63,288 nucleotides of DNA, filler included, from 5 parts of 5 records of this genome joined end to end with filler, not necessarily neighbours in it, one strand, 5' to 3'. Numbered from the whole stretch's first letter, positions 4,943-29,451 are shown. Numbers and translations: made by a program. Notes: generated by a model not told the origin, from the sequence alone.

Positions 4943-7357
4943 TCACTCGTATCTCAAGGCTTCTACCGGATTTCTTGTAGCCGTTTTCCAACTCTGCCAG
5001 CTTACTGTTAATAACGCAATACCTGTTGTTAAAGCAGCTGCCAGTGCAAATATCCACCAGCTCAATGTAGTTTTGTATGCAAAATTATTGAGCCATTGTA
5101 GCATAACCCCCAGACAAACTGGAATTGAGATTGCTACCGATAATAATACCAAAAGCATATATTTACTCACAATCAACCACCAGATTGTAGCTTCGGAAGC
5201 GCCATTTATTTTTCGAATTGCTAACTCTTTTACTTTTGTTTTTATTGAGAAAAACAAAATGGCATACAGCCCGATACAGGCAACAAGAATAGACAATACC
5301 GCTAGAACCAGCATCAGTTTTTTTGCCTGTCGGTCTTTGTAATATTTTTGTGCCAGTGCATCATCAAGAAACTCGTAATATAACGGTCTTTTTATTTGGT
5401 ATTCGCCCCAAAGAGATGACAATGCCGTTAAAGCTTCTGTTATTTGATTGTTGTTGATTTTCATCGCAACATTTCCAATGTATTTGCCCCGAAATATTAC
5501 TAAGGGCTCAATTTTATGGTGTAGCGATCTATAATTGTAATTTTTTACCACGCCTATAATTTTATAGGTTTCATCGCCAACAATATATTGATCGAGAATA
5601 TCGCCTTTGCCCTTAAACTCATGTGCTGCTGTTTCGTTTAAAATAACACTGTTGTTATCGGCATTGAGTTTTTCACTAAAACCACGTCCTTTTACGAGTT
5701 GTAGTCCGTAAGTGTTAAAATAATCGCCATCAATCAAAAAATGATTGGCAGCAAGCTGATTGTCGGCATCTCCCGTGCGATTGAAATAAACCGACGTTAA
5801 TTCGGGATCATCACCAATAAAATTACTAACAAGGCAAACATCCTCCACCGATGTATATGTTTTTAGTTTTTCCATAAAGTGAAGGCGATTGGGACGATTT
5901 AGGTCGTACAAACGAAACATTACAATGTTCTTTTCGCCGTAATCCCTGTTTTTAGAATTCAGGAAACTTAATTGTTTTTGTACAATAAGCGTACTCAGAA
6001 TAATCATTACCGACAAGGCAAATTGTACAATGATAAGCGTATTCTTTAAGCCACCCAGAGAACCCGACTTCGAACTTTTTGAATTGAGTAAGGATAAAAC
6101 ATTTAGCCTTGAATAATAAGAAATCGGAATCATATTTATCAGAATGCTACAAACAATAATTCCAAGAAAGCTAAACGATAAAATTTTAATTAAATCGTTA
6201 TGAGCAAGAGAAATAACGATATCCAAGTGTTTTACCAACATATTTTTTGTGGCGACATAAATAACGATGCCTAACGCAAAACCCATTGCCCAGTACAAAA
6301 TAGTTTCGATTAGTAACATTTGGGTTAGTTGCATTTTGAATGCTCCGTTTGTTTTTCGCACGCCGATTTCTTTTATCCGAAGCGAAAGAGAAGCTAATGT
6401 CAGGTTTACAAAGTTTATCCCCGATATCAGAAAAATAATAAAAGCAATTGCCCCGACACCGTACAAATAAATTTTATTCGATGTTTTTGCTGAATCGAAA
6501 GCGTGATTCGACAAATGAATTTTTGTCAAAACTTCGGAGTGATATTTTATCGGGATATCCTCCGATTTAGTTAAATTTTTGTAACTGTTTCCGGGTGTTT
6601 TTTTAATGATACCATCGCCGTCGATATCAGTTTGTCCATAGATTAGTTTTGTAATTTTAAAATCTAACGCATTGACTTTGCCGGTGTTGGCAGTTTTAAT
6701 GTAGGTCGTAACATTTTTATCTTTCCAACTCTGCATTGTCGGATCAATAGTATTATTGATGTTTACGATAACATTCGCTTCTAAATGTGAATTTTGGGGC
6801 AAATTGCAAAATACCGACGATACAACATACGATTCGTATTGTTTGCCGTGTTTGATTTTTAATTCGTGTCCAAGTGGATTTTCATTGCCAAAGTATATTG
6901 AGGCAATTTTTTCGGAAATAGCAATGCTTTTTTTATCGGGCAATGCCGATGACAAATTCTTTTTGTAAGAAATACCAAAAAAATCAAGAAAATTTGGATC
7001 TGCAAAAATCACTCCCGTAACATTACTGATTTTATTATTCACCTCAATAAAAGCATTCCCCTGATTCTGAATCCGGAGCGATTTTTCTATCTCAGGAATT
7101 TCTTTTACATATTCAGCCAACAGCGACGATGTTGCCACTGAATTAATACTTTGTCCGACGAGTTCGCCCTGTCGGTAAACCCGATATATGTTGTCTTTAT
7201 CGGGTACATAATTATCGAAACTAAGTTCGGAATAAATATATACAGCAGTTAAGATGACTACCGCAAACGATATTCCCAAACCAATAAGTTTGGCAAACGA
7301 TAAAGTTCGATTTTTAAGTAACTGTCTGAATGTGATTTTAATGTAGTTGCTATTCAC
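4943..7357 (-). CDS. FtsX/MacB-like ABC transporter permease
   Basis: 804 aa; KEIGVRKTNGA and KELAIRKINGA motifs; ends RNPVEALRYE; GTG start. Confidence 0.92.
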   Translation of the reverse strand: MNSNYIKITFRQLLKNRTLSFAKLIGLGISFAVVILTAVYIYSELSFDNYVPDKDNIYRVYRQGELVGQSINSVATSSLLAEYVKEIPEIEKSLRIQNQGNAFIEVNNKISNVTGVIFADPNFLDFFGISYKKNLSSALPDKKSIAISEKIASIYFGNENPLGHELKIKHGKQYESYVVSSVFCNLPQNSHLEANVIVNINNTIDPTMQSWKDKNVTTYIKTANTGKVNALDFKITKLIYGQTDIDGDGIIKKTPGNSYKNLTKSEDIPIKYHSEVLTKIHLSNHAFDSAKTSNKIYLYGVGAIAFIIFLISGINFVNLTLASLSLRIKEIGVRKTNGAFKMQLTQMLLIETILYWAMGFALGIVIYVATKNMLVKHLDIVISLAHNDLIKILSFSFLGIIVCSILINMIPISYYSRLNVLSLLNSKSSKSGSLGGLKNTLIIVQFALSVMIILSTLIVQKQLSFLNSKNRDYGEKNIVMFRLYDLNRPNRLHFMEKLKTYTSVEDVCLVSNFIGDDPELTSVYFNRTGDADNQLAANHFLIDGDYFNTYGLQLVKGRGFSEKLNADNNSVILNETAAHEFKGKGDILDQYIVGDETYKIIGVVKNYNYRSLHHKIEPLVIFRGKYIGNVAMKINNNQITEALTALSSLWGEYQIKRPLYYEFLDDALAQKYYKDRQAKKLMLVLAVLSILVACIGLYAILFFSIKTKVKELAIRKINGASEATIWWLIVSKYMLLVLLSVAISIPVCLGVMLQWLNNFAYKTTLSWWIFALAAALTTGIALLTVSWQSWKTATRNPVEALRYE

Positions 7358-7655: not shown

Positions 7656-10022
7656 GTTGGAATAATTGTCGGATTACTGGCTGCCCTTCAACTGGCGTTT
7701 CCTGTATTTAATTTCAATATGGAGTATACATCTTTTGGACGTGTTCGTCCGATTCACACCAACGCCATAATATTTGCTTTTGTAGGAAATGCCATTTTTG
7801 CCGGTGTTTATTATTCACTTCAGAAACTACTAAAAGCAAGGCTATTCAGCGATGTTTTAAGTAAAATACACTTTTGGGGCTGGCAGCTTATTATTGTTCT
7901 TGCAGCAGTAACTTTTGTTTTAGGAATTACAACATCGAAAGAATATGCAGAACTGGAATGGCCCATCGACATATTAATAGCCGTTGTTTGGGTTATTTTT
8001 GGCTGGAACATGATTGGTACCATAATAAAAAGGAGAGTTCAGCATATTTATGCCGCCATTTGGTGGTACCTGGCTACATTTCTGGGTGTTGCCATTTTAC
8101 ATGTAGTTAACTCGTTTGCATTACCCATTTCACTTACAAAAAGTTATTCCATTTACGCCGGAGCTCAGGATGCAGTGGTACAATGGTGGTACGGACACAA
8201 TGCCGTGGCATTTTTCCTGACAACTCCATTTCTTGGTTTAATGTATTACTATCTGCCAAAAGCTGCTAACCGTCCAATATATTCTTATAAATTATCAATT
8301 ATCCATTTCTGGTCGCTTATCTTTTTATATATGTGGGCAGGCCCGCACCATTTATTATATCAGGCATTGCCAGAATGGGCACAAGCGCTGGGTGTAACAT
8401 TCTCAATTATGTTGATTGCCCCGTCGTGGGGAGGAATGATAAACGGACTTTTAACATTACGCGGAGCCTGGGATAAAGTACGCGACAGTGCAGCACTCAA
8501 ATTTTTTGTTATTGCAATAACTGCCTACGGAATGTCGACATTTGAAGGGCCAATGATGTCGCTGAAAAGTGTAAATCAGATTACGCATTTCACCGACTGG
8601 ACCATTGCGCATACCCACATTGCAGGAATGGCCTGGAACGGAGGTATCGTTTTTGGTATTTTATACTGGCTCGTTCCTAAAATGTTTAAAACAAAATTAT
8701 TCTCCGAAAAACTGGCAAATACCCACTTTTGGTTAGCCACACTTTCCATTCTAATTTATGCAATTCCGCTTTACTGGGCAGCAGTTACACAATGGTTAAT
8801 GTTAAGAGAATATACAGAAGAGGGATATTTAGCTTATCCTAATTTCCTTGAAACACTTACACAAATATTACCCATGTATACCGTTCGGATAATAGGAGGT
8901 GCATTGTATCTCATGGGATTTTTGGTAATGGTTTACAACCTGTTTAAAACAATGGCAGCTGGACAAGTGGAAAGCAATGAAGCGGCTGAAGCTCCTGCGC
9001 TGGTATTACAAGGTGCCCGAAATCCTGTAAAAGAAACCATTCACCGCTGGATGGAAAGAAAAGCAGTCCGGTTTTCAATTTGGGTTTTTATTGCACTGGT
9101 AATTGGTGGTGCGGTAGAAATTATTCCAATGATTTTTATTAAATCAAATGTTCCAACTATAGATTCGGTAAAACCTTACACTCCTCTGGAACTAGAGGGT
9201 CGCGATATCTACATTTCTGAAGGATGTTACACCTGCCACTCACAAATGGTTCGTCCGTTCCGCTGGGAAACCGATCGGTACGGAGAGTACTCAAAAATTG
9301 GTGAATTTGTTTACGATCATCCATATCAGTGGGGTTCAAGAAGAACAGGACCAGACTTAGGAAGAGCTGGAGTAATTGGGGGACCAATGTATAAAAATGC
9401 TGCCTGGCATTACAACCATTTTATGGATCCTCAAAAAATGAATGAACAATCGATTATGCCAAATTATGCCTGGTTTGCTAAAAAAGATGTAGATCTGGAA
9501 ATGACTCCCGCAAAAATCAGAGCAATGCAAACACTGGGGGTTCCTTACGAAGATGGATACGACGAAAAAGCCGTTGACGATTATATGGCTCAGGCGCAAA
9601 TTATTGTCGACGATTTAAAAGCTTCGGGGATTGATATTGAACCTGCAAAACAAATGGTGGCAATGATTGCCTATATGCACAAATTAGGAAAAGACATTTC
9701 ACCACCACCAGTTTTGGTTGTTGAATCGGATGAACCACAAAAAGAAGAGATCGAACTTTTAACATCGCAGGAAGATTTGGATGCCGCAGAAAAAATGTAC
9801 CAAACAACCTGTACTGTTTGTCATGGTGCCCAAGGCCAAGGTTTTGCAACGTTCCCAAGTTTAATTGATGATGAATGGATTAACGGCAGTTCTCCTGCTC
9901 AAATCTATAACTCTATTGCAAATGGGAATGTAGCCAAAGGAATGATTGCGTATAAAAATCAATATTCCGAAAAGCAAATTACTCAATTAACCAGTTATAT
10001 ACTTGAAACATTAAACAAATGA
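7656..10022 (+). CDS. ccoN: cbb3-type cytochrome c oxidase subunit I/II fusion (CcoN-CcoO) with extra C-terminal cytochrome c domain; 5'-truncated
   Basis: RPIHTNA, QWWYGHNAV, WAGPHH, HTH motifs; CcoO EGCYTCHSQMVRP and WGSRRTGPDL; extra CTVCH; frame open from contig edge (VGIIVGLLAALQLAFP) upstream of 7719. Confidence 0.95.
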   Translation, partial: VGIIVGLLAALQLAFPVFNFNMEYTSFGRVRPIHTNAIIFAFVGNAIFAGVYYSLQKLLKARLFSDVLSKIHFWGWQLIIVLAAVTFVLGITTSKEYAELEWPIDILIAVVWVIFGWNMIGTIIKRRVQHIYAAIWWYLATFLGVAILHVVNSFALPISLTKSYSIYAGAQDAVVQWWYGHNAVAFFLTTPFLGLMYYYLPKAANRPIYSYKLSIIHFWSLIFLYMWAGPHHLLYQALPEWAQALGVTFSIMLIAPSWGGMINGLLTLRGAWDKVRDSAALKFFVIAITAYGMSTFEGPMMSLKSVNQITHFTDWTIAHTHIAGMAWNGGIVFGILYWLVPKMFKTKLFSEKLANTHFWLATLSILIYAIPLYWAAVTQWLMLREYTEEGYLAYPNFLETLTQILPMYTVRIIGGALYLMGFLVMVYNLFKTMAAGQVESNEAAEAPALVLQGARNPVKETIHRWMERKAVRFSIWVFIALVIGGAVEIIPMIFIKSNVPTIDSVKPYTPLELEGRDIYISEGCYTCHSQMVRPFRWETDRYGEYSKIGEFVYDHPYQWGSRRTGPDLGRAGVIGGPMYKNAAWHYNHFMDPQKMNEQSIMPNYAWFAKKDVDLEMTPAKIRAMQTLGVPYEDGYDEKAVDDYMAQAQIIVDDLKASGIDIEPAKQMVAMIAYMHKLGKDISPPPVLVVESDEPQKEEIELLTSQEDLDAAEKMYQTTCTVCHGAQGQGFATFPSLIDDEWINGSSPAQIYNSIANGNVAKGMIAYKNQYSEKQITQLTSYILETLNK

Positions 10023-21990: not shown

Positions 21991-22127
21991 ATTGTATTTT
22001 AATAATTTAGAAATTTTGCATAGGTATCTTACAACCTACCTTACACACAAAAACTCCAAAACACAAATTGTTCACAAAGTAGTTAAGGGTTCATTGAGAA
22101 TTCCAAATGCTTCGATGATCTTAAGCT

Positions 22128-23063
22128 TTATATACTTCCTCTGGTGTTGAGCCATCCAAACATTTTATCAAAGGCATTTTCCCGTGCCGGTTTACCAGAC
22201 AGGAAAACATCATGCACTGCATTTTCAATTTCCACCATCTTTACATCCGGACCCAGCTGCGGTGATATCCTTTTGATATCCTCAACATTTAAGATCACAT
22301 CACTGGTTTGTGCAACCTTTTTATATTTAAATATCCGGGCAGATCTGTTTGAATGCAATACCAGCACCGGGACCTGTATATTTGATGAACGCAATGACCG
22401 TTGCGCCCGAAAAACAGCACTTATCCAAACAAACCAGGTTTGAAACCCATCGATAGGTTTCCATTTGAGGCTATAATCCCATTCACCAAAATGATCCTTG
22501 TGCAGCGACATACCATATGCTGGTGGGATGGTCTTTTTGATAGCTGCACCTGGTGCAATCTTTGCCATTAAGTTTGCAGCAATTCTTGAGAGCGGCCTCA
22601 ACATCGGGGGTTGATTAAAATCGAGAAACGGCGCATTTAAAATCAGGACATCAACCAGGTTTCTGGAGTTACCCTTGTTCATATATATCGCAGAGATCAA
22701 CCCTCCGGTGGAATGTCCAAGAAGGATTAACCTGTTGGGATTGATTGTCTTTATCTTGTCGGTAGCCAGATCGATTTCCTCGAAATAATCCGTGAGATTT
22801 TTACAAAAGTTGGGCCGCTGATGTGGCAAAAGTGAGCGGCCGTGCCTGCGCAGATCAAGCGCATAAAAATCATAACCTTCCCTGTTAAACCGCTCAGCCA
22901 TGTGATCCTGAAAAAAGTAGTCCACATAGCCGTGGATATACAGTACACTTTTTCGGTTTTGGGTATTATTTTTTGATGCGATGAGAGTAGCTTCCACTTC
23001 ACCATCAATGTCATCTTGTAATGAGAGTGTCTCTATTGAATATTTCCGGAGCATTTCGGCCAT
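22128..23063 (-). CDS. Alpha/beta hydrolase (lysophospholipase-like)
   Basis: LYIHGYVDYF, GHSTGG nucleophile elbow, C-terminal HDV. Confidence 0.9.
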   Translation of the reverse strand: MAEMLRKYSIETLSLQDDIDGEVEATLIASKNNTQNRKSVLYIHGYVDYFFQDHMAERFNREGYDFYALDLRRHGRSLLPHQRPNFCKNLTDYFEEIDLATDKIKTINPNRLILLGHSTGGLISAIYMNKGNSRNLVDVLILNAPFLDFNQPPMLRPLSRIAANLMAKIAPGAAIKKTIPPAYGMSLHKDHFGEWDYSLKWKPIDGFQTWFVWISAVFRAQRSLRSSNIQVPVLVLHSNRSARIFKYKKVAQTSDVILNVEDIKRISPQLGPDVKMVEIENAVHDVFLSGKPARENAFDKMFGWLNTRGSI

Positions 23064-23064
23064 G

Positions 23065-24678
23065 TTACTTCATCATAAAATTCATCTCCTGCTTCTTGTA
23101 TTCCCGCATTTGTTTTACAGGCTCTATGATTGTATAACCATCCCACAACTGATCGTCAAACTGGTCAACAAAAATGACTTCCATTTTTTTCTTTTCCTTA
23201 AAATCCGCGAATGCCTCGCCGGAGATTTCGGTGTTATCCAAAACAAGGTATTCCACCGATTCTTTCATCGACATGGCTAAGCGAAACCGCACCTTTACCT
23301 CCATCAATGTTTTATCAAAAAGGAACCGTTTTCTTTTTTTTATCAATGCTATTTTCCGGTTGATACTGGCATTTGAAGCACTGTTATAGGAAAAATATTT
23401 GAGTGCATAAGTGCTGTTCTGCTTCTCAAAATAAATAGAACCGCTAAACTGTGTTTCCGCGTAGCCAACGCCCAATAGTTGAATTTCCAATCCCAGCTTA
23501 CCTGGAGCATAGGCATAATCGGCACGCACCAACGCATAGGTTTTGGTGGCAATGAACAGGCGTCCCTCGTACAGCCCTTTCGCCCTGGGCCTGAAATCAA
23601 TAATATATACTTCCTCGCCATTTACACGGGTTCCACCGGCAAGTGAATATTTATAACGCGCGGTTTTATGCAAAAACTCCCATTGATCTTTATCTTCGAG
23701 GTTTGTGTACCGCTCCTTGCGCACAATACCCCATCTTTGATATTTTACCCATCGCTCATTTCCTTTCAGGGTATCTTCCTGTGGTTCAGCAACTATTGTG
23801 TCAAACTGCGAATTAAATTCCAGTGAATCGCTAACCACGGAATCTTGATCGTTTTCTTCTTCCATATCAAGCTTACCACCAAAAATGCCGCTTCTCGCCT
23901 TCCAGTATTCATCCTCATCTGTGTTGGCAAAGGCATTTTCAAAAATGGCTTCAAGCTGCTTAAGATCGGCAACGTCTTTTTCCATTAATGATACGGTTCT
24001 GATAGGATCAATTTTGAAGGTTACGGAATCCTCCGGATTTTTGTTGTAATACAGATCGCCCAAAAAATCAGTGAAAGAGGTAAAATTGTCCGGGAATTTT
24101 TCTTCCACCAGATCAATCATATCCCTGTCCAGTTGCGGAACCGAGCTTTTTTTATATTTCAACTCAAACCCGGTAATGTCCTGATTATCGCGGTCGCGGA
24201 TAAAAACCTGTCGCCTGCTTGTGGTTAGCTTATAGTTTTTGCTTTTGTTTTCGAGCACCTTTTTTACAATCTCCCTGGGATTTGGGCTGCCCCCGAAAAC
24301 CAGTATTTCGCTGAGGTTGATGATATCCTCTTCCATCAACACATCAGGCGAATGCTTTAACTGTTCGATGGTGCGTTTAACTGTTTTGTAACCCATATAC
24401 TGGAAACGTACAGTATCAGCAAAACCAAGTCCTGAAATATCCATGGCATACTGTCCGTGTTCATTACTCACGGCACCGGTATGCTTGCTCAGCACATAAA
24501 TGTGGGTGTAAGGCAACGGAGCCTTGCTTTTATGATCGAGCACCAGGCCGTGAATTACCAGCGAAGAATCCCCGGAAGGGCTGATTTCCGTTTCGATCTC
24601 CGGGGGGAACAATGTTGCAAATCCTGCCGTGGAAAGCAAAAGCAATAAACCGATGAATGGTATGCACTTCCTGATCAT
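23065..24678 (-). CDS. Carboxypeptidase-regulatory-like domain exported protein
   Basis: Signal peptide; GLVLDHKSKAPLPY..GAVSNEHGQY..YMGYKT pattern. Confidence 0.75.
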   Translation of the reverse strand: MIRKCIPFIGLLLLLSTAGFATLFPPEIETEISPSGDSSLVIHGLVLDHKSKAPLPYTHIYVLSKHTGAVSNEHGQYAMDISGLGFADTVRFQYMGYKTVKRTIEQLKHSPDVLMEEDIINLSEILVFGGSPNPREIVKKVLENKSKNYKLTTSRRQVFIRDRDNQDITGFELKYKKSSVPQLDRDMIDLVEEKFPDNFTSFTDFLGDLYYNKNPEDSVTFKIDPIRTVSLMEKDVADLKQLEAIFENAFANTDEDEYWKARSGIFGGKLDMEEENDQDSVVSDSLEFNSQFDTIVAEPQEDTLKGNERWVKYQRWGIVRKERYTNLEDKDQWEFLHKTARYKYSLAGGTRVNGEEVYIIDFRPRAKGLYEGRLFIATKTYALVRADYAYAPGKLGLEIQLLGVGYAETQFSGSIYFEKQNSTYALKYFSYNSASNASINRKIALIKKRKRFLFDKTLMEVKVRFRLAMSMKESVEYLVLDNTEISGEAFADFKEKKKMEVIFVDQFDDQLWDGYTIIEPVKQMREYKKQEMNFMMK

Positions 24679-25111
24679 TTGGTTGAAATATTAACGGTTA
24701 CAATATACAAACATTTGCGGTTCCTGACAAACCCGGAAAATCCATAAAAGACGACTTTTCTTGCCATGTCATTCAGGATGTGTTAATGCTAAACTGATGA
24801 TTTAGTGAATGATGCCGGCTTAACCAATCACCGCATTAAACAATTATCCGCAAGACGATCAGGACGTGATTTTGTTACATCCCGAATACCCTGCAATAAA
24901 CAAATCCTTGCAGTGTTGATATTCAAACCATCTCCGGTTTTATGGCGGCTCCTGGAAATATTTTATTTTAGCAGGTGAATTATCAAAACCTGTGAACATG
25001 AAAAATTTTACCATAATCCGTGTGAACCTTAAGCCCCCTGTTTCGGGTTGTCATTTCAACTGAGCAGAAAGCGGGTTTTGGATGTGATTTTGATAAAAAT
25101 ACACAAACCTG

Positions 25112-25174
25112 AACATATCTGCAGTATGATGTTGGATATGTTTGGAAAAGTGGAATATATTATGAGTTAGTAGC
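25112..25174 (+). mobile_element. attI-like primary recombination site of cassette array
   Basis: Core GTTAGTAGC (25166-25174) is the reverse complement of GCTACTAAC at the end of the first gene; no attC-type left arm upstream; 8-bp inverted repeat AACATATC/GATATGTT at 25112-25142. Confidence 0.6.
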
Positions 25175-25202
25175 AACTTTTAAAAAGACAAAAATTTACA
25201 AA

Positions 25203-26588
25203 TTGAAAAGACATTTAATCATACTAAGTTTTCTTCTAATTGCAATTTCTTCATTTTCTGATTATCGATTAACTCGGGGACCCAACATTGGAGAGGTATA
25301 TTATATTGGACCAACTTACAGTGGATTGGGCATTTACCACTCGACTGATTTTGGGAATACTGCAGTTTGTGTTGATAGTACAACTAATGCAACAGGAGTT
25401 GTTGCAGACTTATCAGAAGGAGTGCTTTATTACAGAAACATGGGAGAGGCATTATATATTTCTTATAATCACGGTCAACAAGGAACATGGCAACTTCAAA
25501 ATGGTGGGATTTACCCTGGATTCGCAAGCGGCAGAATAGAAGGAGAAATTTACAACATTATCGTTTCTCATAGTGATAATTATGGCGAAACTTTTAATCC
25601 ACATAGTTACAATGGCTTTTTTGGCAACTACTTTGAAAGCGAAATAGACAACCAACCAGATATTGGATACCTGCTTACCTACAAATCAAGTGTTGCAGAT
25701 TCTGTATACTTATTGAAATCAATTGACAATTATGAAAATTTAGAATTAAATCGGGTTTTTAACTTCCATTGGAACGATGCAATTACTCTGACCAGAGGAA
25801 CAAATAGTGGAGAGTTATATTTATTGAATAGCACCAATCGTGAACTATGGTTTACTAATGACTTTTCAGAAAGCTGGATTAAAGTGGACAACATTAATTT
25901 TGGTAGCAGCCCTTATGGAGCTACAATAGTCGGAGGAAGACAAAATGGAGAAGTCTATATTAAATATGACTTTGTTAATTTAATGTGGCAAAATGCCCAT
26001 ACTTACATTTTCCACTCAACTGACTATGGGAAAACCTTTGAAGTTTTCCATCCTTTTGGAAAAGGAAATGAACCTGTTTTAGCAAATTTCTCTACAACAG
26101 AAAATGAGGTTTTATTGACAACCCCTGTTGCATTTTCAAACTTTTCAATAGGCAATATTTTGGAATATCAATGGGACTTTGAAAACGATGGAGTAATTGA
26201 CTCTTATGATGAATTTCCAACTCACACTTATCAAGATACGGGTTATTATTCTGTGAAACTTTCAGTGGTAGGAGCAGACAGCACAAATACCTTCATTAAA
26301 GAAAATTACATTCATGTCATTGACACCATAACAAGTAGTCCTGACTTAAATTATCAGGCAGTTAGTGTCTCGCCAAATCCTTTCAATAAAAGAATTTCAA
26401 TTGAATTAAGACAAGATTTTGAAATGATTGAAATTCTTGACTTAAATGGAAAAAGTCATTTTTCAAAAAAAATATACCCGGAAAACAAGATTGAAATCCT
26501 TGACTTGAAACAATTGAAGAAGGGAATATTCATCTTGAAAATTAGGACTAAAGGAAAAGACATTACGAAGAAAATAATAAAGAATTAA
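25203..26588 (+). CDS. Cassette 1: secreted protein with BNR-like motifs, PKD domain and T9SS type-A C-terminal domain
   Basis: Signal peptide; STDFG/STDYG; YQWDFENDG..PTHTYQDTGYYSVKL; SPNPF..KGIFILKI..TKKIIKN; TTG start. Confidence 0.85.
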   Translation: MKRHLIILSFLLIAISSFSDYRLTRGPNIGEVYYIGPTYSGLGIYHSTDFGNTAVCVDSTTNATGVVADLSEGVLYYRNMGEALYISYNHGQQGTWQLQNGGIYPGFASGRIEGEIYNIIVSHSDNYGETFNPHSYNGFFGNYFESEIDNQPDIGYLLTYKSSVADSVYLLKSIDNYENLELNRVFNFHWNDAITLTRGTNSGELYLLNSTNRELWFTNDFSESWIKVDNINFGSSPYGATIVGGRQNGEVYIKYDFVNLMWQNAHTYIFHSTDYGKTFEVFHPFGKGNEPVLANFSTTENEVLLTTPVAFSNFSIGNILEYQWDFENDGVIDSYDEFPTHTYQDTGYYSVKLSVVGADSTNTFIKENYIHVIDTITSSPDLNYQAVSVSPNPFNKRISIELRQDFEMIEILDLNGKSHFSKKIYPENKIEILDLKQLKKGIFILKIRTKGKDITKKIIKN

Positions 26589-26597
26589 GAAAAAGCA

Positions 26598-26736
26598 GCT
26601 ACTAACAGCCCATGATAGCCCATAGCCGGCTTACGGATCATCAAGAAAAAGAATTGTAAATTTGAGCATATGTAACATCAACGAACATCAGAGTAAAGAA
26701 ACGGCTACGGGCCATATGGGCAAAACGTTGGCAACC
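26598..26736 (+). mobile_element. attC-like site 1
   Basis: GCTACTAAC-A-GCCCATgATAGCCCATAGCCG..CGGCTACGGGCCATATGGGC-AAAAC-GTTGGCAACC imperfect palindrome. Confidence 0.85.
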
Positions 26737-26755
26737 ATATAAGCATGTATGTAAA

Positions 26756-27541
26756 ATGAAAAATATCATACTATTAATATTAGCAACACTTCTTTCGAAT
26801 CTAAACATCTTCGGACAAACTCGAGTTATTTCTGGGAGAGTGATAACTGAGTATTTAGAACCATTACCTATGTTAGACATTCAAAATTCTGATGCAAAAA
26901 TCCTAGGTAAAACAGATATGGATGGGAGGTTTAAATTTAGCATTCCTCAAGAAACGGACAGTTTGCTGTTTCGCTATATCGGCTTGGAGCGGACTGATAT
27001 AAAATTAAAGCACGATTGCGACACAATAGAAGTTATCATGTTTTATAGTGGATCCTCTCATTGGTCCTTTAATAAAATAGATAGAATTCGCAAGAAAAGA
27101 TTTGATGAATTACCCAACATACATACTATTGCAGTAAAAGAAGGGCTATTTACGACTAATTCTAATTGCTATGAAAGAGAATTTAAACCTGATAAACCAG
27201 AACTGAAAGTGATTAGTAAGTATTTAAAAGAATTAAGGAAAGCTAACAAAAATGATTTTAAAGAATTAAAAATCGGTGACATTGTAAAAATACCATTTGG
27301 AGTAAACAGCTCGGAAAAAAGTATTAGTAGTACTTATTCACTTTGCGAGAATTGTACTGAGGAAGATTATGATTACGTAATTACTGGAAAGATTATTAAT
27401 AAATACAGAAGAAATTTTACTCTTAAAATTGAGATTACAGAAATGCAACAATATGACTCCTTAGAATATAGAGGGAAGACTTTAAAAATCGGCAATGATT
27501 TTAAATATGAGATGAGAATTTTTAAAGTGATAATAAATTAA
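26756..27541 (+). CDS. Cassette 2: exported hypothetical protein with carboxypeptidase-regulatory-like N-terminal domain
   Basis: Signal peptide; ISGRVI..EPLP..TDMDGRF..FRYIG. Confidence 0.75.
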   Translation: MKNIILLILATLLSNLNIFGQTRVISGRVITEYLEPLPMLDIQNSDAKILGKTDMDGRFKFSIPQETDSLLFRYIGLERTDIKLKHDCDTIEVIMFYSGSSHWSFNKIDRIRKKRFDELPNIHTIAVKEGLFTTNSNCYEREFKPDKPELKVISKYLKELRKANKNDFKELKIGDIVKIPFGVNSSEKSISSTYSLCENCTEEDYDYVITGKIINKYRRNFTLKIEITEMQQYDSLEYRGKTLKIGNDFKYEMRIFKVIIN

Positions 27542-27544
27542 AAC

Positions 27545-27670
27545 GGTTGCCAACAAAAGCTAAACACCATAAGGGTTTTGGCGCATTAGAAATGAATAAG
27601 AATACGTAAAAAAAATAAAACAAAATAGGGAAAAGCTCCTTACAGTGCTTAGCCCCGACCGTTGTGGGTA
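27545..27670 (+). mobile_element. attC-like site 2
   Basis: GGTTGCCAAC-AAAA-GCTAAACACCATAAGG..CCTTACAGTGCTTAGC-CCCGACC-GTTGTGGGTA. Confidence 0.85.
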
Positions 27671-27706
27671 ATGCAACCAAAGACATAGACGTAAGATGAA
27701 TTAAAT

Positions 27707-28363
27707 ATGAAATACACAGAAGACATAGTAAAAAAAGCAGCGAAGGATGCATATTTGAATGGTGATGTAAAATTTGAGATTTTAACTGAAAATTGTGCGT
27801 TGATTGTGATTGACATGCAAGATGAATTCGTAAAGCCAGAGTGGACATCCTCTTGGATTCCTGAAGCGACAAAACAAGTAACAAAAATAAAAATCCTAAT
27901 AGATTTCTGTAGACAAAAAAAAATCCCAGTAATTTATACAGCATTCAAGGATACTCATTTGTACAAAGACAGACCAAAAACAGGAGATTTGATGCCGAAT
28001 AGATATCCTGAATTAGGAGAAGACTCAACTTGGTTTAAGCAAGGGAAGATATGGCATGAATTAGAACCTAATGAACATGATATTGTGATTTACAAGCCAT
28101 CTTATGGTGCTTTCTATGATACTCCATTAGAGACAATTCTAAAAAACTTAGAAAAGGATACGATTATAATTTGCGGTACACTGACGAATTATTGCTGTGG
28201 AACAACTGCGAGACAGGGATATGAGCGAGGTTTTAAAGTACTTTTTGGGAGTGATGTGACTTCAACCGATGATCCAGAGATGCAAGAACCTGAATTAAAA
28301 GTATTAAGAAAAGGATTTGCAAAGGTTATGACTTTAAACGACATACAAAATCACATAGGATAA
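27707..28363 (+). CDS. Cassette 3: isochorismatase-family cysteine hydrolase
   Basis: ALIVIDMQDEF, KPSYGAFYDT, GTLTNYCCGTTARQG (D-K-C triad). Confidence 0.92.
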   Translation: MKYTEDIVKKAAKDAYLNGDVKFEILTENCALIVIDMQDEFVKPEWTSSWIPEATKQVTKIKILIDFCRQKKIPVIYTAFKDTHLYKDRPKTGDLMPNRYPELGEDSTWFKQGKIWHELEPNEHDIVIYKPSYGAFYDTPLETILKNLEKDTIIICGTLTNYCCGTTARQGYERGFKVLFGSDVTSTDDPEMQEPELKVLRKGFAKVMTLNDIQNHIG

Positions 28364-28369
28364 TGCACA

Positions 28370-28506
28370 TACCCACAACAGCCAATATAGAAAATAGCTG
28401 GGCAGTAGGTTTTCGAACTTCGGTAGCCCGCATCAGGCTTTTATCTCGGTAGATAGGAACGTAGCCCGTATTCCGCTAATTTCCATATTGGCAACACGTT
28501 AGCTGC
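28370..28506 (+). mobile_element. attC-like site 3
   Basis: TACCCACAAC-A-GCCAATATAGAAAATAGC..GCTAATTTCCATATTGGC-AACAC-GTTAGCTGC. Confidence 0.85.
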
Positions 28507-28514
28507 AAGGCAAA

Positions 28515-29426
28515 ATGACAGACATGAGAGATATTTACTCAAAAAGAAATAAAAGTGTTCCTGATAAACTTGTCTATAACCAAATTGACGAGAAACTACG
28601 TGTTCAAATTATCAGGACATGGTGGAAGTTTTTTAATCAGTATGATGAAGAAACATCTGAAAAACTATGGTTCAAAATCAATAGTATAATCTGTGACGAA
28701 CACGGAAAACATACTCTCCTTGCAGATGACCTAAGAAGATGGAAGGAGAGTTACAGGTGCCAATATTACTTTGAGAACTTGGAATCTTTAGACGAATCTT
28801 TTGATGTCATTGAAATTGTATTCAGAGCTATATCTAAAATTCCCGAAGTCATTCATCTAAGAATATCTCCAAGACCAGATGAAGTAATAGCTGAGCTAAA
28901 CGAGAGATTTCGAGAAAACGACTTTGGTTATGAATTTACTAAAGGCATGATAGTTAGGGTGGACAATAAACTGCTTCATAAGGACATAGTAAATCAAGTA
29001 ATCCAATTAACTAATGACAGTTTTTTTTCAAATGCAAATGAAGAGTTTCTGTCTGCTTTGAATCATTTGAGACATGGGCGTAATAAAGAAGCCTTAAACG
29101 ATAGCCTAAAGTCATTTGAATCCACTATGAAAATAATAATCCACGACATGGGTTGGGATTATAATGAAAATGACACCGCAAGTAAATTGATTCAAAAATG
29201 CCTTGACAATGAACTGATTCCGAAATCCCTTCAAAGTCAATTTTCTGCACTAAGAACAACTCTTGAAGCAGGTATACCGACCATTCGAAATAAGAATAGC
29301 GGACATGGACAAGGTCCTAAGAAAATCGTAGTTCCTGACAGCTTAGCGACCTATTCAATTTACATGACCGGGACGTGCATTAATTATCTAATCGAATTGT
29401 ACAAAGAAAAAAAGCCCAGCAGCTAA
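28515..29426 (+). CDS. Cassette 4: STM4504/CBY_0614-like protein with abortive-infection-like C-terminal domain
   Basis: IYSKRN..LRVQII N-terminus; ELNERFRE..GYEF; KSFESTMK; PTIRNKNSGHGQG (RxxxxxH); stop codon lies within inverse core. Confidence 0.7.
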   Translation: MTDMRDIYSKRNKSVPDKLVYNQIDEKLRVQIIRTWWKFFNQYDEETSEKLWFKINSIICDEHGKHTLLADDLRRWKESYRCQYYFENLESLDESFDVIEIVFRAISKIPEVIHLRISPRPDEVIAELNERFRENDFGYEFTKGMIVRVDNKLLHKDIVNQVIQLTNDSFFSNANEEFLSALNHLRHGRNKEALNDSLKSFESTMKIIIHDMGWDYNENDTASKLIQKCLDNELIPKSLQSQFSALRTTLEAGIPTIRNKNSGHGQGPKKIVVPDSLATYSIYMTGTCINYLIELYKEKKPSS

Positions 29427-29451
29427 TCGAGTAGACGGCCCCGGCCATGAA
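29426..29451 (-). mobile_element. 3' end of putative group IIC intron inserted in attC-like site 4
   Basis: Reverse strand ..GGCCGGGGCCGTCTACTCGAT|TAGCTGC; replaces the hairpin arm expected after GCAGCTAA. Confidence 0.65.

Follow-up and report, generated by a model that had tools for sequence, protein, structure and literature searches.

An orphan attI-like site and its cassette array on a Bacteroidales contig point to an integron-like system with a Xer-like recombinase

A cassette array headed by an attI-like site

The window analysed here, 63,288 nt in length, is made of separate contigs strung together by N linkers, and one of these (positions 21991-29451, 7461 bp) carries an integron-like array of gene cassettes headed by an attI-like site. 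As a sequence-only reading of this DNA had proposed, the array holds four co-oriented, unrelated open reading frames (ORFs) with short leaders, on which both the ORF coordinates and the Pfam families agree: the four ORFs, all of them open and on the plus strand, start 37, 29, 46 and 17 nt from the GTT at the head of their respective cassettes. Cassette 1 (25167..26727, 1561 bp) encodes a 461-aa protein (ORF 25203-26588) with a PKD domain and a type IX secretion system (T9SS) sorting tail according to Pfam, and cassette 2 (26728..27661, 934 bp) a 261-aa protein (ORF 26756-27541) whose CarboxypepD_reg-like match is weak and below cut-off. Cassette 3 (27662..28498, 837 bp) specifies an isochorismatase-family hydrolase of 218 aa (ORF 27707-28363). 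The product of cassette 4 (28499..29425), a 303-aa protein (ORF 28515-29426) of the STM4504/CBY_0614 family with AbiJ_NTD4 and DUF7014 domains, is possibly defence-related. No resistance gene is found among the four cassettes, and the array extends off the right end of the contig.

The two ends of each cassette are matched to one another, a feature that the sequence-only reading did not contain. The bases that follow the left GTT are the exact complement of those preceding the right AAC of the same cassette over 9, 10 and 10 nt in cassettes 1 to 3; the ends of cassette 4 are complementary over 8 nt beyond an interrupted base, the first base having been lost to an insertion described below. Between the two ends of any one site, complementarity in the window covers only 3-4 nt. 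For integrons it is established that complementary cassette ends are the trace of a circle inserted at G^TT (PMC3518468), and by analogy we regard the own-end complementarity seen here as the scar of a circular intermediate.

Cassette 1 also occurs elsewhere with the same GTT boundary. In a run from another study (X2), a 3670-nt contig (record 9) matches it from exactly position 25166, with 2 differences in 528 nt, and 3142 nt of other DNA precede the start of the cassette; such near identity in another study's run points to recent movement. A joint between 25170 and 26602 in the same run was not counted as an excision, since unknown letters lie between. More distant homologs of cassette 1 (37-51% identity) sit at 10 loci that are, by eye, ordinary gene clusters without GTT/AAC ends, and the gene would therefore come from a native family. 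Homologs of cassette 3 were found in 0 of 251 genomes at 1e-50, and a homolog of cassette 4 in 1 of 251, where it is itself a cassette of the same type.

The attI-like site (25085..25168, plus strand; nhmmer), also absent from the sequence-only reading, has an internal 8-bp inverted repeat and a G^TT crossover at 25166/25167. An attI profile built from 10 copies, the window excluded, matches 25085-25160 at E 2.8e-11, the next best match standing at E 0.67. The 80 bp preceding 25166 fall into a conserved family represented on three metagenome contigs and in six genomes, whose copies always end at GTT and then run into differing DNA. The same attI type follows the stop codon of a co-oriented tyrosine recombinase gene at two loci, L077 (genome G328) and L098 (G020), and two other copies (L078 and L082) keep a C-terminal piece of the recombinase gene. 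The copy in the window, which stands without such a gene, carries a first-cassette scar of 9 nt; it is called attI by analogy. The alternative of a conserved small ORF in this region was rejected, as stops break the frame in several copies and no single frame is conserved. Further upstream lies a possible cassette promoter element (24964..24971, plus strand) with one mismatch to TAnnTTTG, the Bacteroidota -7 motif; it is one of 8 such matches in the intergenic region, and the sigma-70 promoter scan does not cover Bacteroidota promoters.

Hairpin sites between the cassettes

Three complete hairpin sites separate the cassettes and are the only ones that a stem detector found on the contig. Site s1 (26597..26736; 126 bp from AAC at 26604 to GTT at 26727, 26604-26729) has a 1 x 5 loop by the core and one bulged base, s2 (27545..27670; 112 bp, 27552-27663, AAC at 27552 and GTT at 27661) a 1 x 4 loop and no bulge, and s3 (28370..28507; 124 bp, 28377-28500, AAC at 28377 and GTT at 28498) a 1 x 5 loop and no bulge. 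The imperfect palindromes running from AAC to GTT that had been described between the ORFs hold up in these three cases, at 112-126 bp; the fourth site is incomplete and ends in AAT, not AAC, after R''.

A covariance model (R1) was built from 49 sites at recombinase loci of other genomes, none of them taken from the window or from class 1 integrons. Throughout the 63-kb window it matched only s3, s1 and s2 (78.3, 61.3 and 53.9 bits). Within the closest family it also matched 22 of 23 genomes, though in one of these the match was single and weak; site counts per genome are lower bounds, and 4 of the 23 genomes supplied training sites for the model. Homologs of s1 with 70-78% identity were found at 9 places in 7 of the 23 related genomes, with different flanks, so that related hairpins do flank other genes.

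Sites of this family are mostly 116-126 bp long, with 1 base after AAC and 4-5 unpaired bases before GTT. The bulge is absent from 53 of 73 of them, and its commonest position is a single fixed one, that of s1 included. Classical attC sites, as described in PMC5027507, combine RYYYAAC/GTTRRRY cores with 5-6-nt spacers on both arms and with two or three extrahelical bases; none of the four window cores matches GTTRRRY. Of 75 family sites, 56 fold more stably as the bottom strand. In the window, the s1 stem is on the bottom strand, and the differences between bottom and top folding amount to 1.9, 1.4 and 0.1 kcal/mol. When stem mismatches were scored symmetrically (neutrally) in 54 sites, A.C on the top strand (G.T on the bottom) was counted 100 times and G.T on the top 28 times; conservation is also seen for two G.T pairs of the bottom strand, one in 45 of 49 sites and the other in 25 of 47. 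Loop asymmetry and wobbles would mark the strand, replacing the bases that are gripped by the IntI insertion.

Some loci outside the window show further variation. Short (60 bp) and long (~190-200 bp) site variants with the same arms occur at L035:2673-2732, at L177 and at L185:509-707 and 9170-9369. In one array, Rfam DUF805 RNA motifs lie within cassettes (L128:3499-3564 and 6019-6088), and at L155 (G318:C1:1500-16500) a tandem array of many near-identical 325-bp cassettes is interleaved with repeated integrase-like genes.

The fourth site was most likely cut by a group II intron. After R'' the contig enters a motif that is present at 13 places in 8 of 166 loci and in 0 viral contigs, and 11 of 12 motif copies examined run into sequence that looks like the last domains of a group II intron. 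The probable 3' end of such an intron lies in the bottom strand at 29426..29451, the contig ending 26 nt into the element; an intron here would also explain the contig break. At L151 the corresponding element has RVT_1 and GIIM domains and Rfam group II (D1-D4) matches on the opposite strand. Introns are known to enter attC in its bottom strand and in the orientation opposed to that of the cassette genes (PMC3001079), and the group IIC-attC introns described there resemble the L151 element in both respects, as would the intron in the fourth window site; unlike them, the window holds only 26 nt of its element, at the same junction. Nearly every att site has a group II intron copy at L151:3913-13500 and at L152 (G120), with 4 junctions in the former and 3 in the latter. 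At L186:1057-1075, the right end of an aadS cassette reads AAT where AAC is expected and is followed by an IS91-type element, the insertion point being that of the window intron.

A Xer-like recombinase linked to the sites in related genomes

The recombinase associated with these sites in relatives is represented by P0001 (383 aa), a protein with Phage_integrase and Phage_int_SAM_4 domains. It stays below all curated cut-offs, reaching 202.1 of 220 bits for archaeal XerA (NF040815, PDB 4a8e), 174.6 of 329.6 for XerD, 161.3 of 335.15 for XerC and 174 of 265 for the integron integrase (TIGR02249). It aligns to IntI4 (2a3v) in two pieces (109-276/8-175 and 302-377/243-318), with ~42 aa missing, and the IntI insertion is absent in 14 of 14 homologs aligned with IntI1, while the catalytic residues R, K, H, R, H and Y are invariant in 32 homologs. 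Folded with the alignment of these 32 homologs, P0001 gave a model with a predicted local distance difference test (pLDDT) score of 87, the best structural matches being XerA and IntI4 and all Foldseek matches listed being tyrosine recombinases; a single-sequence fold (pLDDT 36) was not used. The 75-aa N-terminal domain has Atlas matches to unnamed Bacteroidota clusters only, and a HARP reading of it found no confirmation, with 1 of 32 members matching at E 0.018. Matches to P0001 occur in 53 of 301 Bacteroidales genomes at 1e-70 and in 17 of the 23 family genomes at 1e-40; a few matches in the family set are apparently IS91-type integrases.

Linkage was assessed at 50 recombinase loci, comprising 43 of the 61 places from the 1e-70 search and 7 from the 1e-40 family search, all picked for likely downstream sequence. 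In 294 kb downstream of the recombinase genes, the gene's own strand carries 73 sites and the other strand 4; the 110 kb upstream have none. A first-cassette scar of at least 9 nt, scored between a GTT no more than 220 bp from the stop codon and the left end of the first site, was present at 20 of the 25 loci with a site, compared with 3 of 600 mismatched pairs. Consecutive cassettes carry the end scar in 40 of 48 cases; the two ends of a single site match in 11 of 73, nine of these belonging to one tandem-duplicated array (a count taken from the listing). The sequence-only reading had looked to a Bacteroidota-native capture system with non-canonical sites and to a divergent recombinase linked to such arrays. 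Both expectations are borne out, the former by sites in 22 of the 23 closest-family genomes, one of which has a true IntI, and the latter by a Xer-like enzyme that lacks the IntI insertion and is encoded upstream of the sites.

Among five single-contig genomes, TIGR02249 exceeded its cut-off in none, and the three of them that were checked for sites gave 22 (G328), 41 (G424) and 53 (G318) matches. In the single-contig genome G328, 22 sites form about ten clusters, the ten regions around which were examined. This genome encodes three full-length members of the recombinase family (the L077 gene and two of 462-463 aa) besides an internally deleted copy, and our supposition of one recombinase per genome was thus wrong; the two longer proteins have a duplicated-looking N-terminal part. 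The attI sequences beside the recombinases differ and are of at least three types (L077, L177, L178, L183, L184). At L178 an attI with a cassette scar has no recombinase nearby and, given the G328 layout, orphan arrays in genomes with intact enzymes elsewhere would be normal. Two G328 cassettes begin at DNA unlike attI, and these starts (L176:~1870 and L182) both follow a similar TCTTAT...GGA context, possibly that of preferred secondary insertion sites.

Working model and alternatives

The array is real and, to judge from its sequence, would be integron-like in its working while standing outside canonical integrons. We interpret it, with a probability of roughly 0.78, as an orphan attI platform that is served in trans and belongs to a Bacteroidota system with a Xer-like recombinase. 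In its intact form the system would comprise, on one strand, a tyrosine recombinase (Xer/IntI-related, ~380 aa, with an extra N-terminal domain and without the IntI insertion), an attI-like site and cassettes, each cassette consisting of one or more genes and a hairpin site of ~120 bp. A cassette would leave as a circle and enter at G^TT, which would make its two ends exact complements. The bottom strand of the site would fold, its asymmetry coming from the 1 x 4-5 loop beside the core and from the conserved G.T wobbles, not from an extrahelical G and T. The attI of the window would have outlived its recombinase gene, the enzyme most likely being supplied from another locus of the same genome. 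Of the earlier proposal that the array is served in trans or by a divergent recombinase, the linked divergent enzyme is observed in relatives, and we infer that this enzyme catalyses the reaction, uses the folded bottom strand and acts at present in trans on the window array. Standard attC models such as that of IntegronFinder may miss sites of this kind.

Several observations weigh against this interpretation. Neither tblastn nor hidden Markov model (HMM) searches found a tyrosine recombinase gene or remnant on the contig, and the DNA beside the window attI keeps no detectable trace of how the orphan state arose. The host is known from the 7461-bp contig alone, its own recombinase lying outside what was seen, and no precise excision joint was seen in the contigs. 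Half of the 50 recombinase loci have no detected site (12 with less than 750 bp of downstream sequence and 13 with more than 1.1 kb; four of those beyond the 12 short ones have intron-cut sites), and 5 of the 25 loci with a site have no first-cassette scar. The overall stem-pairing statistics are inflated, the sites having been chosen for pairing. A true integron integrase (421 bits) is encoded at G020:C663:188-1129, in a Lentimicrobiaceae-family metagenome-assembled genome (MAG) that also has the Xer-like system; it could be real or a binning error. Moreover, IntI1 recombines the veb1 site, a member of the hairpin family discussed below, precisely but weakly (PMC3518468; Aubert, Naas, Nordmann 2012).

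The array might instead be a dead relic of the same system, its host having no working recombinase for this attI type and its cassettes being frozen. A relic would fit the missing recombinase and remnant, the drift of the window attI from its relatives, the interrupted fourth site, the want of an excision joint and the genome G023, in which this attI type occurs along with 56 site matches while a recombinase match at 1e-40 is missing. That genome, however, is an incomplete MAG, and the four open ORFs, their perfect end scars and the nearly identical cassette 1 in another study's run (2 of 528 nt differ) render the relic unlikely. In addition, run X1 contains a second attI copy on a 4.5-kb contig (record 5) of similar depth (318 versus 334.5), with ~4.3 kb upstream of the copy; inspected by eye, the 30 letters visible upstream are like the junction between recombinase end and attI at L077 and L098, and another s1-like site lies on a contig of similar depth. 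To the disadvantage of the preferred reading, this run may be the source of the window DNA and is not independent, and those 30 letters are all that is shown upstream of its attI.

Two other readings do without the Xer-like system. Arrays without a recombinase gene alongside are known as attC-site clusters that have no integron-integrase (CALIN; PMC4889954, PMC9024848, PMC8618304), and the window could be an ordinary one, with divergent attC sites and a canonical IntI encoded elsewhere: the GTT/AAC cores, the bias to the bottom strand and the length of the sites broadly agree with attC (PMC5027507), one family site was published as the veb1 attC, used by IntI1 at a low level (PMC3518468), and G020 does encode a true IntI. 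Yet TIGR02249 exceeds its cut-off in 1 of 23 family genomes, of which 22 have sites; the spacers have 1 nt on one arm and 4-5 nt on the other where attC has 5-6 on both; the bulge is mostly missing, the cores depart from GTTRRRY, and the other sites of the class 1 integron score at most 13 bits with R1. The window array also keeps an attI-like site, and the first-cassette scar lies behind an enzyme that is not IntI. This explanation is very improbable and largely refuted. It is harder still to believe that the palindromes are terminators, repetitive extragenic palindromic (REP)-like repeats or structured RNAs that piled up otherwise, for example as homing targets of group II introns. Such introns do enter these sites, and many sites in complete genomes are distant from any recombinase, but an Rfam scan of the contig gave no match at E up to 5, none of the terminator-like predictions covers a whole site, and the cassette-specific complementarity of ends, the breakpoint at the G of GTT common to independent comparisons and the one-sided recombinase linkage would be left unexplained.

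With the orphan attI platform thus preferred, the system can be set beside those already described. Like class 1 integrons and the sedentary integron of Vibrio cholerae (IntI4/VchIntIA, PDB 2a3v), it has tandem co-oriented cassettes with short leaders, a G^TT crossover with complementary ends (in all four window cassettes), hairpins in which the bottom strand is favoured, an attI-type primary site beside a tyrosine recombinase gene in relatives, and the Phage_int_SAM_4 domain. It differs in its recombinase, which lacks the ~42-aa IntI insertion, carries an additional N-terminal domain and is encoded by a co-oriented gene whose stop codon precedes attI. The sites differ as well: confined to a narrow 116-126 bp, they show a 1 x 4-5 loop and conserved G.T wobbles and in most cases lack an extrahelical base; one Bacteroidota genome can also hold several recombinase/attI types. 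The window has no adjacent intI, no insertion is found in the associated integrase, and attC geometry is wanting. Nor is P0001 a Xer/dif enzyme by the cut-offs of XerC, XerD and XerA, being under that of XerA and far under the other two. Within simple tyrosine recombinases, an 'Integron-like' subgroup has been defined (Smyshlyaev et al. 2021, PMC8138268); the same paper holds the insertion to be essential to the function of integrons, although it is not fully conserved in this subgroup, and in the excerpts considered no cassette function is given to members without it. According to the IntegronFinder 2.0 paper (PMC9024848), Bacteroidetes had formerly yielded only In0 elements and now yielded one complete integron, in Salinibacter; further background on integrons and cassettes is given in PMC4889954, PMC8618304 and PMC13616975. 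No description of such a cassette system was found in the literature searched, most subscription papers lying outside that search.

Host and surroundings of the array

The host belongs to the Bacteroidales, in keeping with the Bacteroidota assignment of the sequence-only reading: the product of the gene that diverges from the array shares 79% identity with a protein from a Lentimicrobiaceae MAG, and cassette 1 has its T9SS sorting tail. That gene (23065..24678, minus strand) encodes a CarboxypepD_reg-like protein by Pfam and, as had been stated, no tyrosine recombinase. It is followed by a second host gene outside the array, for an alpha/beta hydrolase (Hydrolase_4; 22128..23063, minus strand). 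Both host genes have a GC content of 43% and the cassettes of 31-36%, which agrees with the earlier impression that the array is the more AT-rich. DNA searches of the two closest MAGs gave no match, and s3 had no blastn match among plasmids. The closest host-gene locus (L001) stops ~420 bp upstream of the match, the position of the array lying beyond its end. A loose site pattern was dropped after giving 1 match and 1 control match. At the left end of the contig (window 21991-22083), 38-41 nt are shared with other run X1 contigs at similar depth, as a short repeat. The next contig (window 29552-47186) looks like Bacillota of Clostridia type (FloA, GHKL kinase, asd) and is unrelated to the array.

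Resistance cassettes and significance

A search of plasmids with P0001 returned 223 records, and it is through this recombinase search that the link to veb1 was reached. Homologs of P0001 truncated at the 5' end immediately precede blaVEB-3 and tet(X3) in the same orientation, and identity between blaVEB-3 and the blaVEB-1 of class 1 integrons begins no more than 3 nt from the G of GTT (query position 66-69). At L172:5001-6081 (NZ_CP031802.1) and L168:5142-6763 (NZ_CP084417.1), the blaVEB-1 cassette site is of the hairpin family, and blaVEB-3 stands behind a truncated recombinase with the same left boundary. The veb1 site, 125 bp long, has a 1 x 4 loop, one bulge and a 10-nt end scar and scores 75.9 bits with R1, which was built without class 1 sites; the other sites of that integron stay at or below 13 bits. 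In its loop the veb1 site is similar to s3 (score 32, the best of 1000 shuffles reaching 23). The enzyme linked to VEB-3 nests among Bacteroidota enzymes in the tree (96/92). By contrast, veb1 was published as an inefficient class 1 attC, with no link to Bacteroidota or to another recombinase in the excerpts considered (PMC3518468).

On a Myroides plasmid, tet(X2) forms a complete cassette with a 10-nt scar and a site of 61.5 bits, and a resistance region of a Riemerella plasmid has six sites of 59-89 bits; tet(X3), which comes after TnpF, shares the left-end type of tet(X2) but not its right end. The tet(X) and Riemerella loci are L186:7001-8337, L167:5052-7200, L185 and L187. Counting against a link with resistance genes, TnpF is unplaced in the tree, as is IntI1, the first-cassette scar of tet(X3) failed with a match of only 4 nt, and a scar of at least 9 nt was found in only 3 of the 16 genes scored. 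PMC7473080 and PMC11194056 record a 'xerD' beside tet(X) without a mechanism. Some of these 'xerD' genes may instead be IS91-linked integrases. In Riemerella, a gene flanked by 27 bp on its upstream and 140 bp on its downstream side is reported to integrate without homology, by a mechanism called unknown (PMC13148043). The recognition of the veb1 site by a model built without it, and of tet(X2) as a complete cassette of the Bacteroidota type, are new to this analysis. We lean towards a broader view, in which Bacteroidota have a second cassette-shuffling system parallel to integrons, with an insertion-free recombinase and hairpin sites read by loop asymmetry and G.T wobbles, serving several dispersed arrays per genome, orphan attI sites included. 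This system would have been the first to package blaVEB and tet(X); class 1 integrons would have picked up blaVEB-1 as a foreign cassette, hence its poor use by IntI1, and the homology-free uptake in Riemerella would be the activity of the system.

A widespread cassette system without the IntI insertion would alter two views in the literature, namely that Bacteroidota are nearly integron-free (PMC9024848) and that the insertion is essential (PMC8138268), and would amount to a natural experiment on the recognition of folded DNA sites. It would also join three loose ends of resistance research, the inefficient veb1 attC (PMC3518468), the 'xerD' by tet(X) (PMC7473080) and the homology-free integration in Riemerella (PMC13148043), in one testable hypothesis, and the site model would let surveillance spot Bacteroidota genes that are packaged as cassettes.

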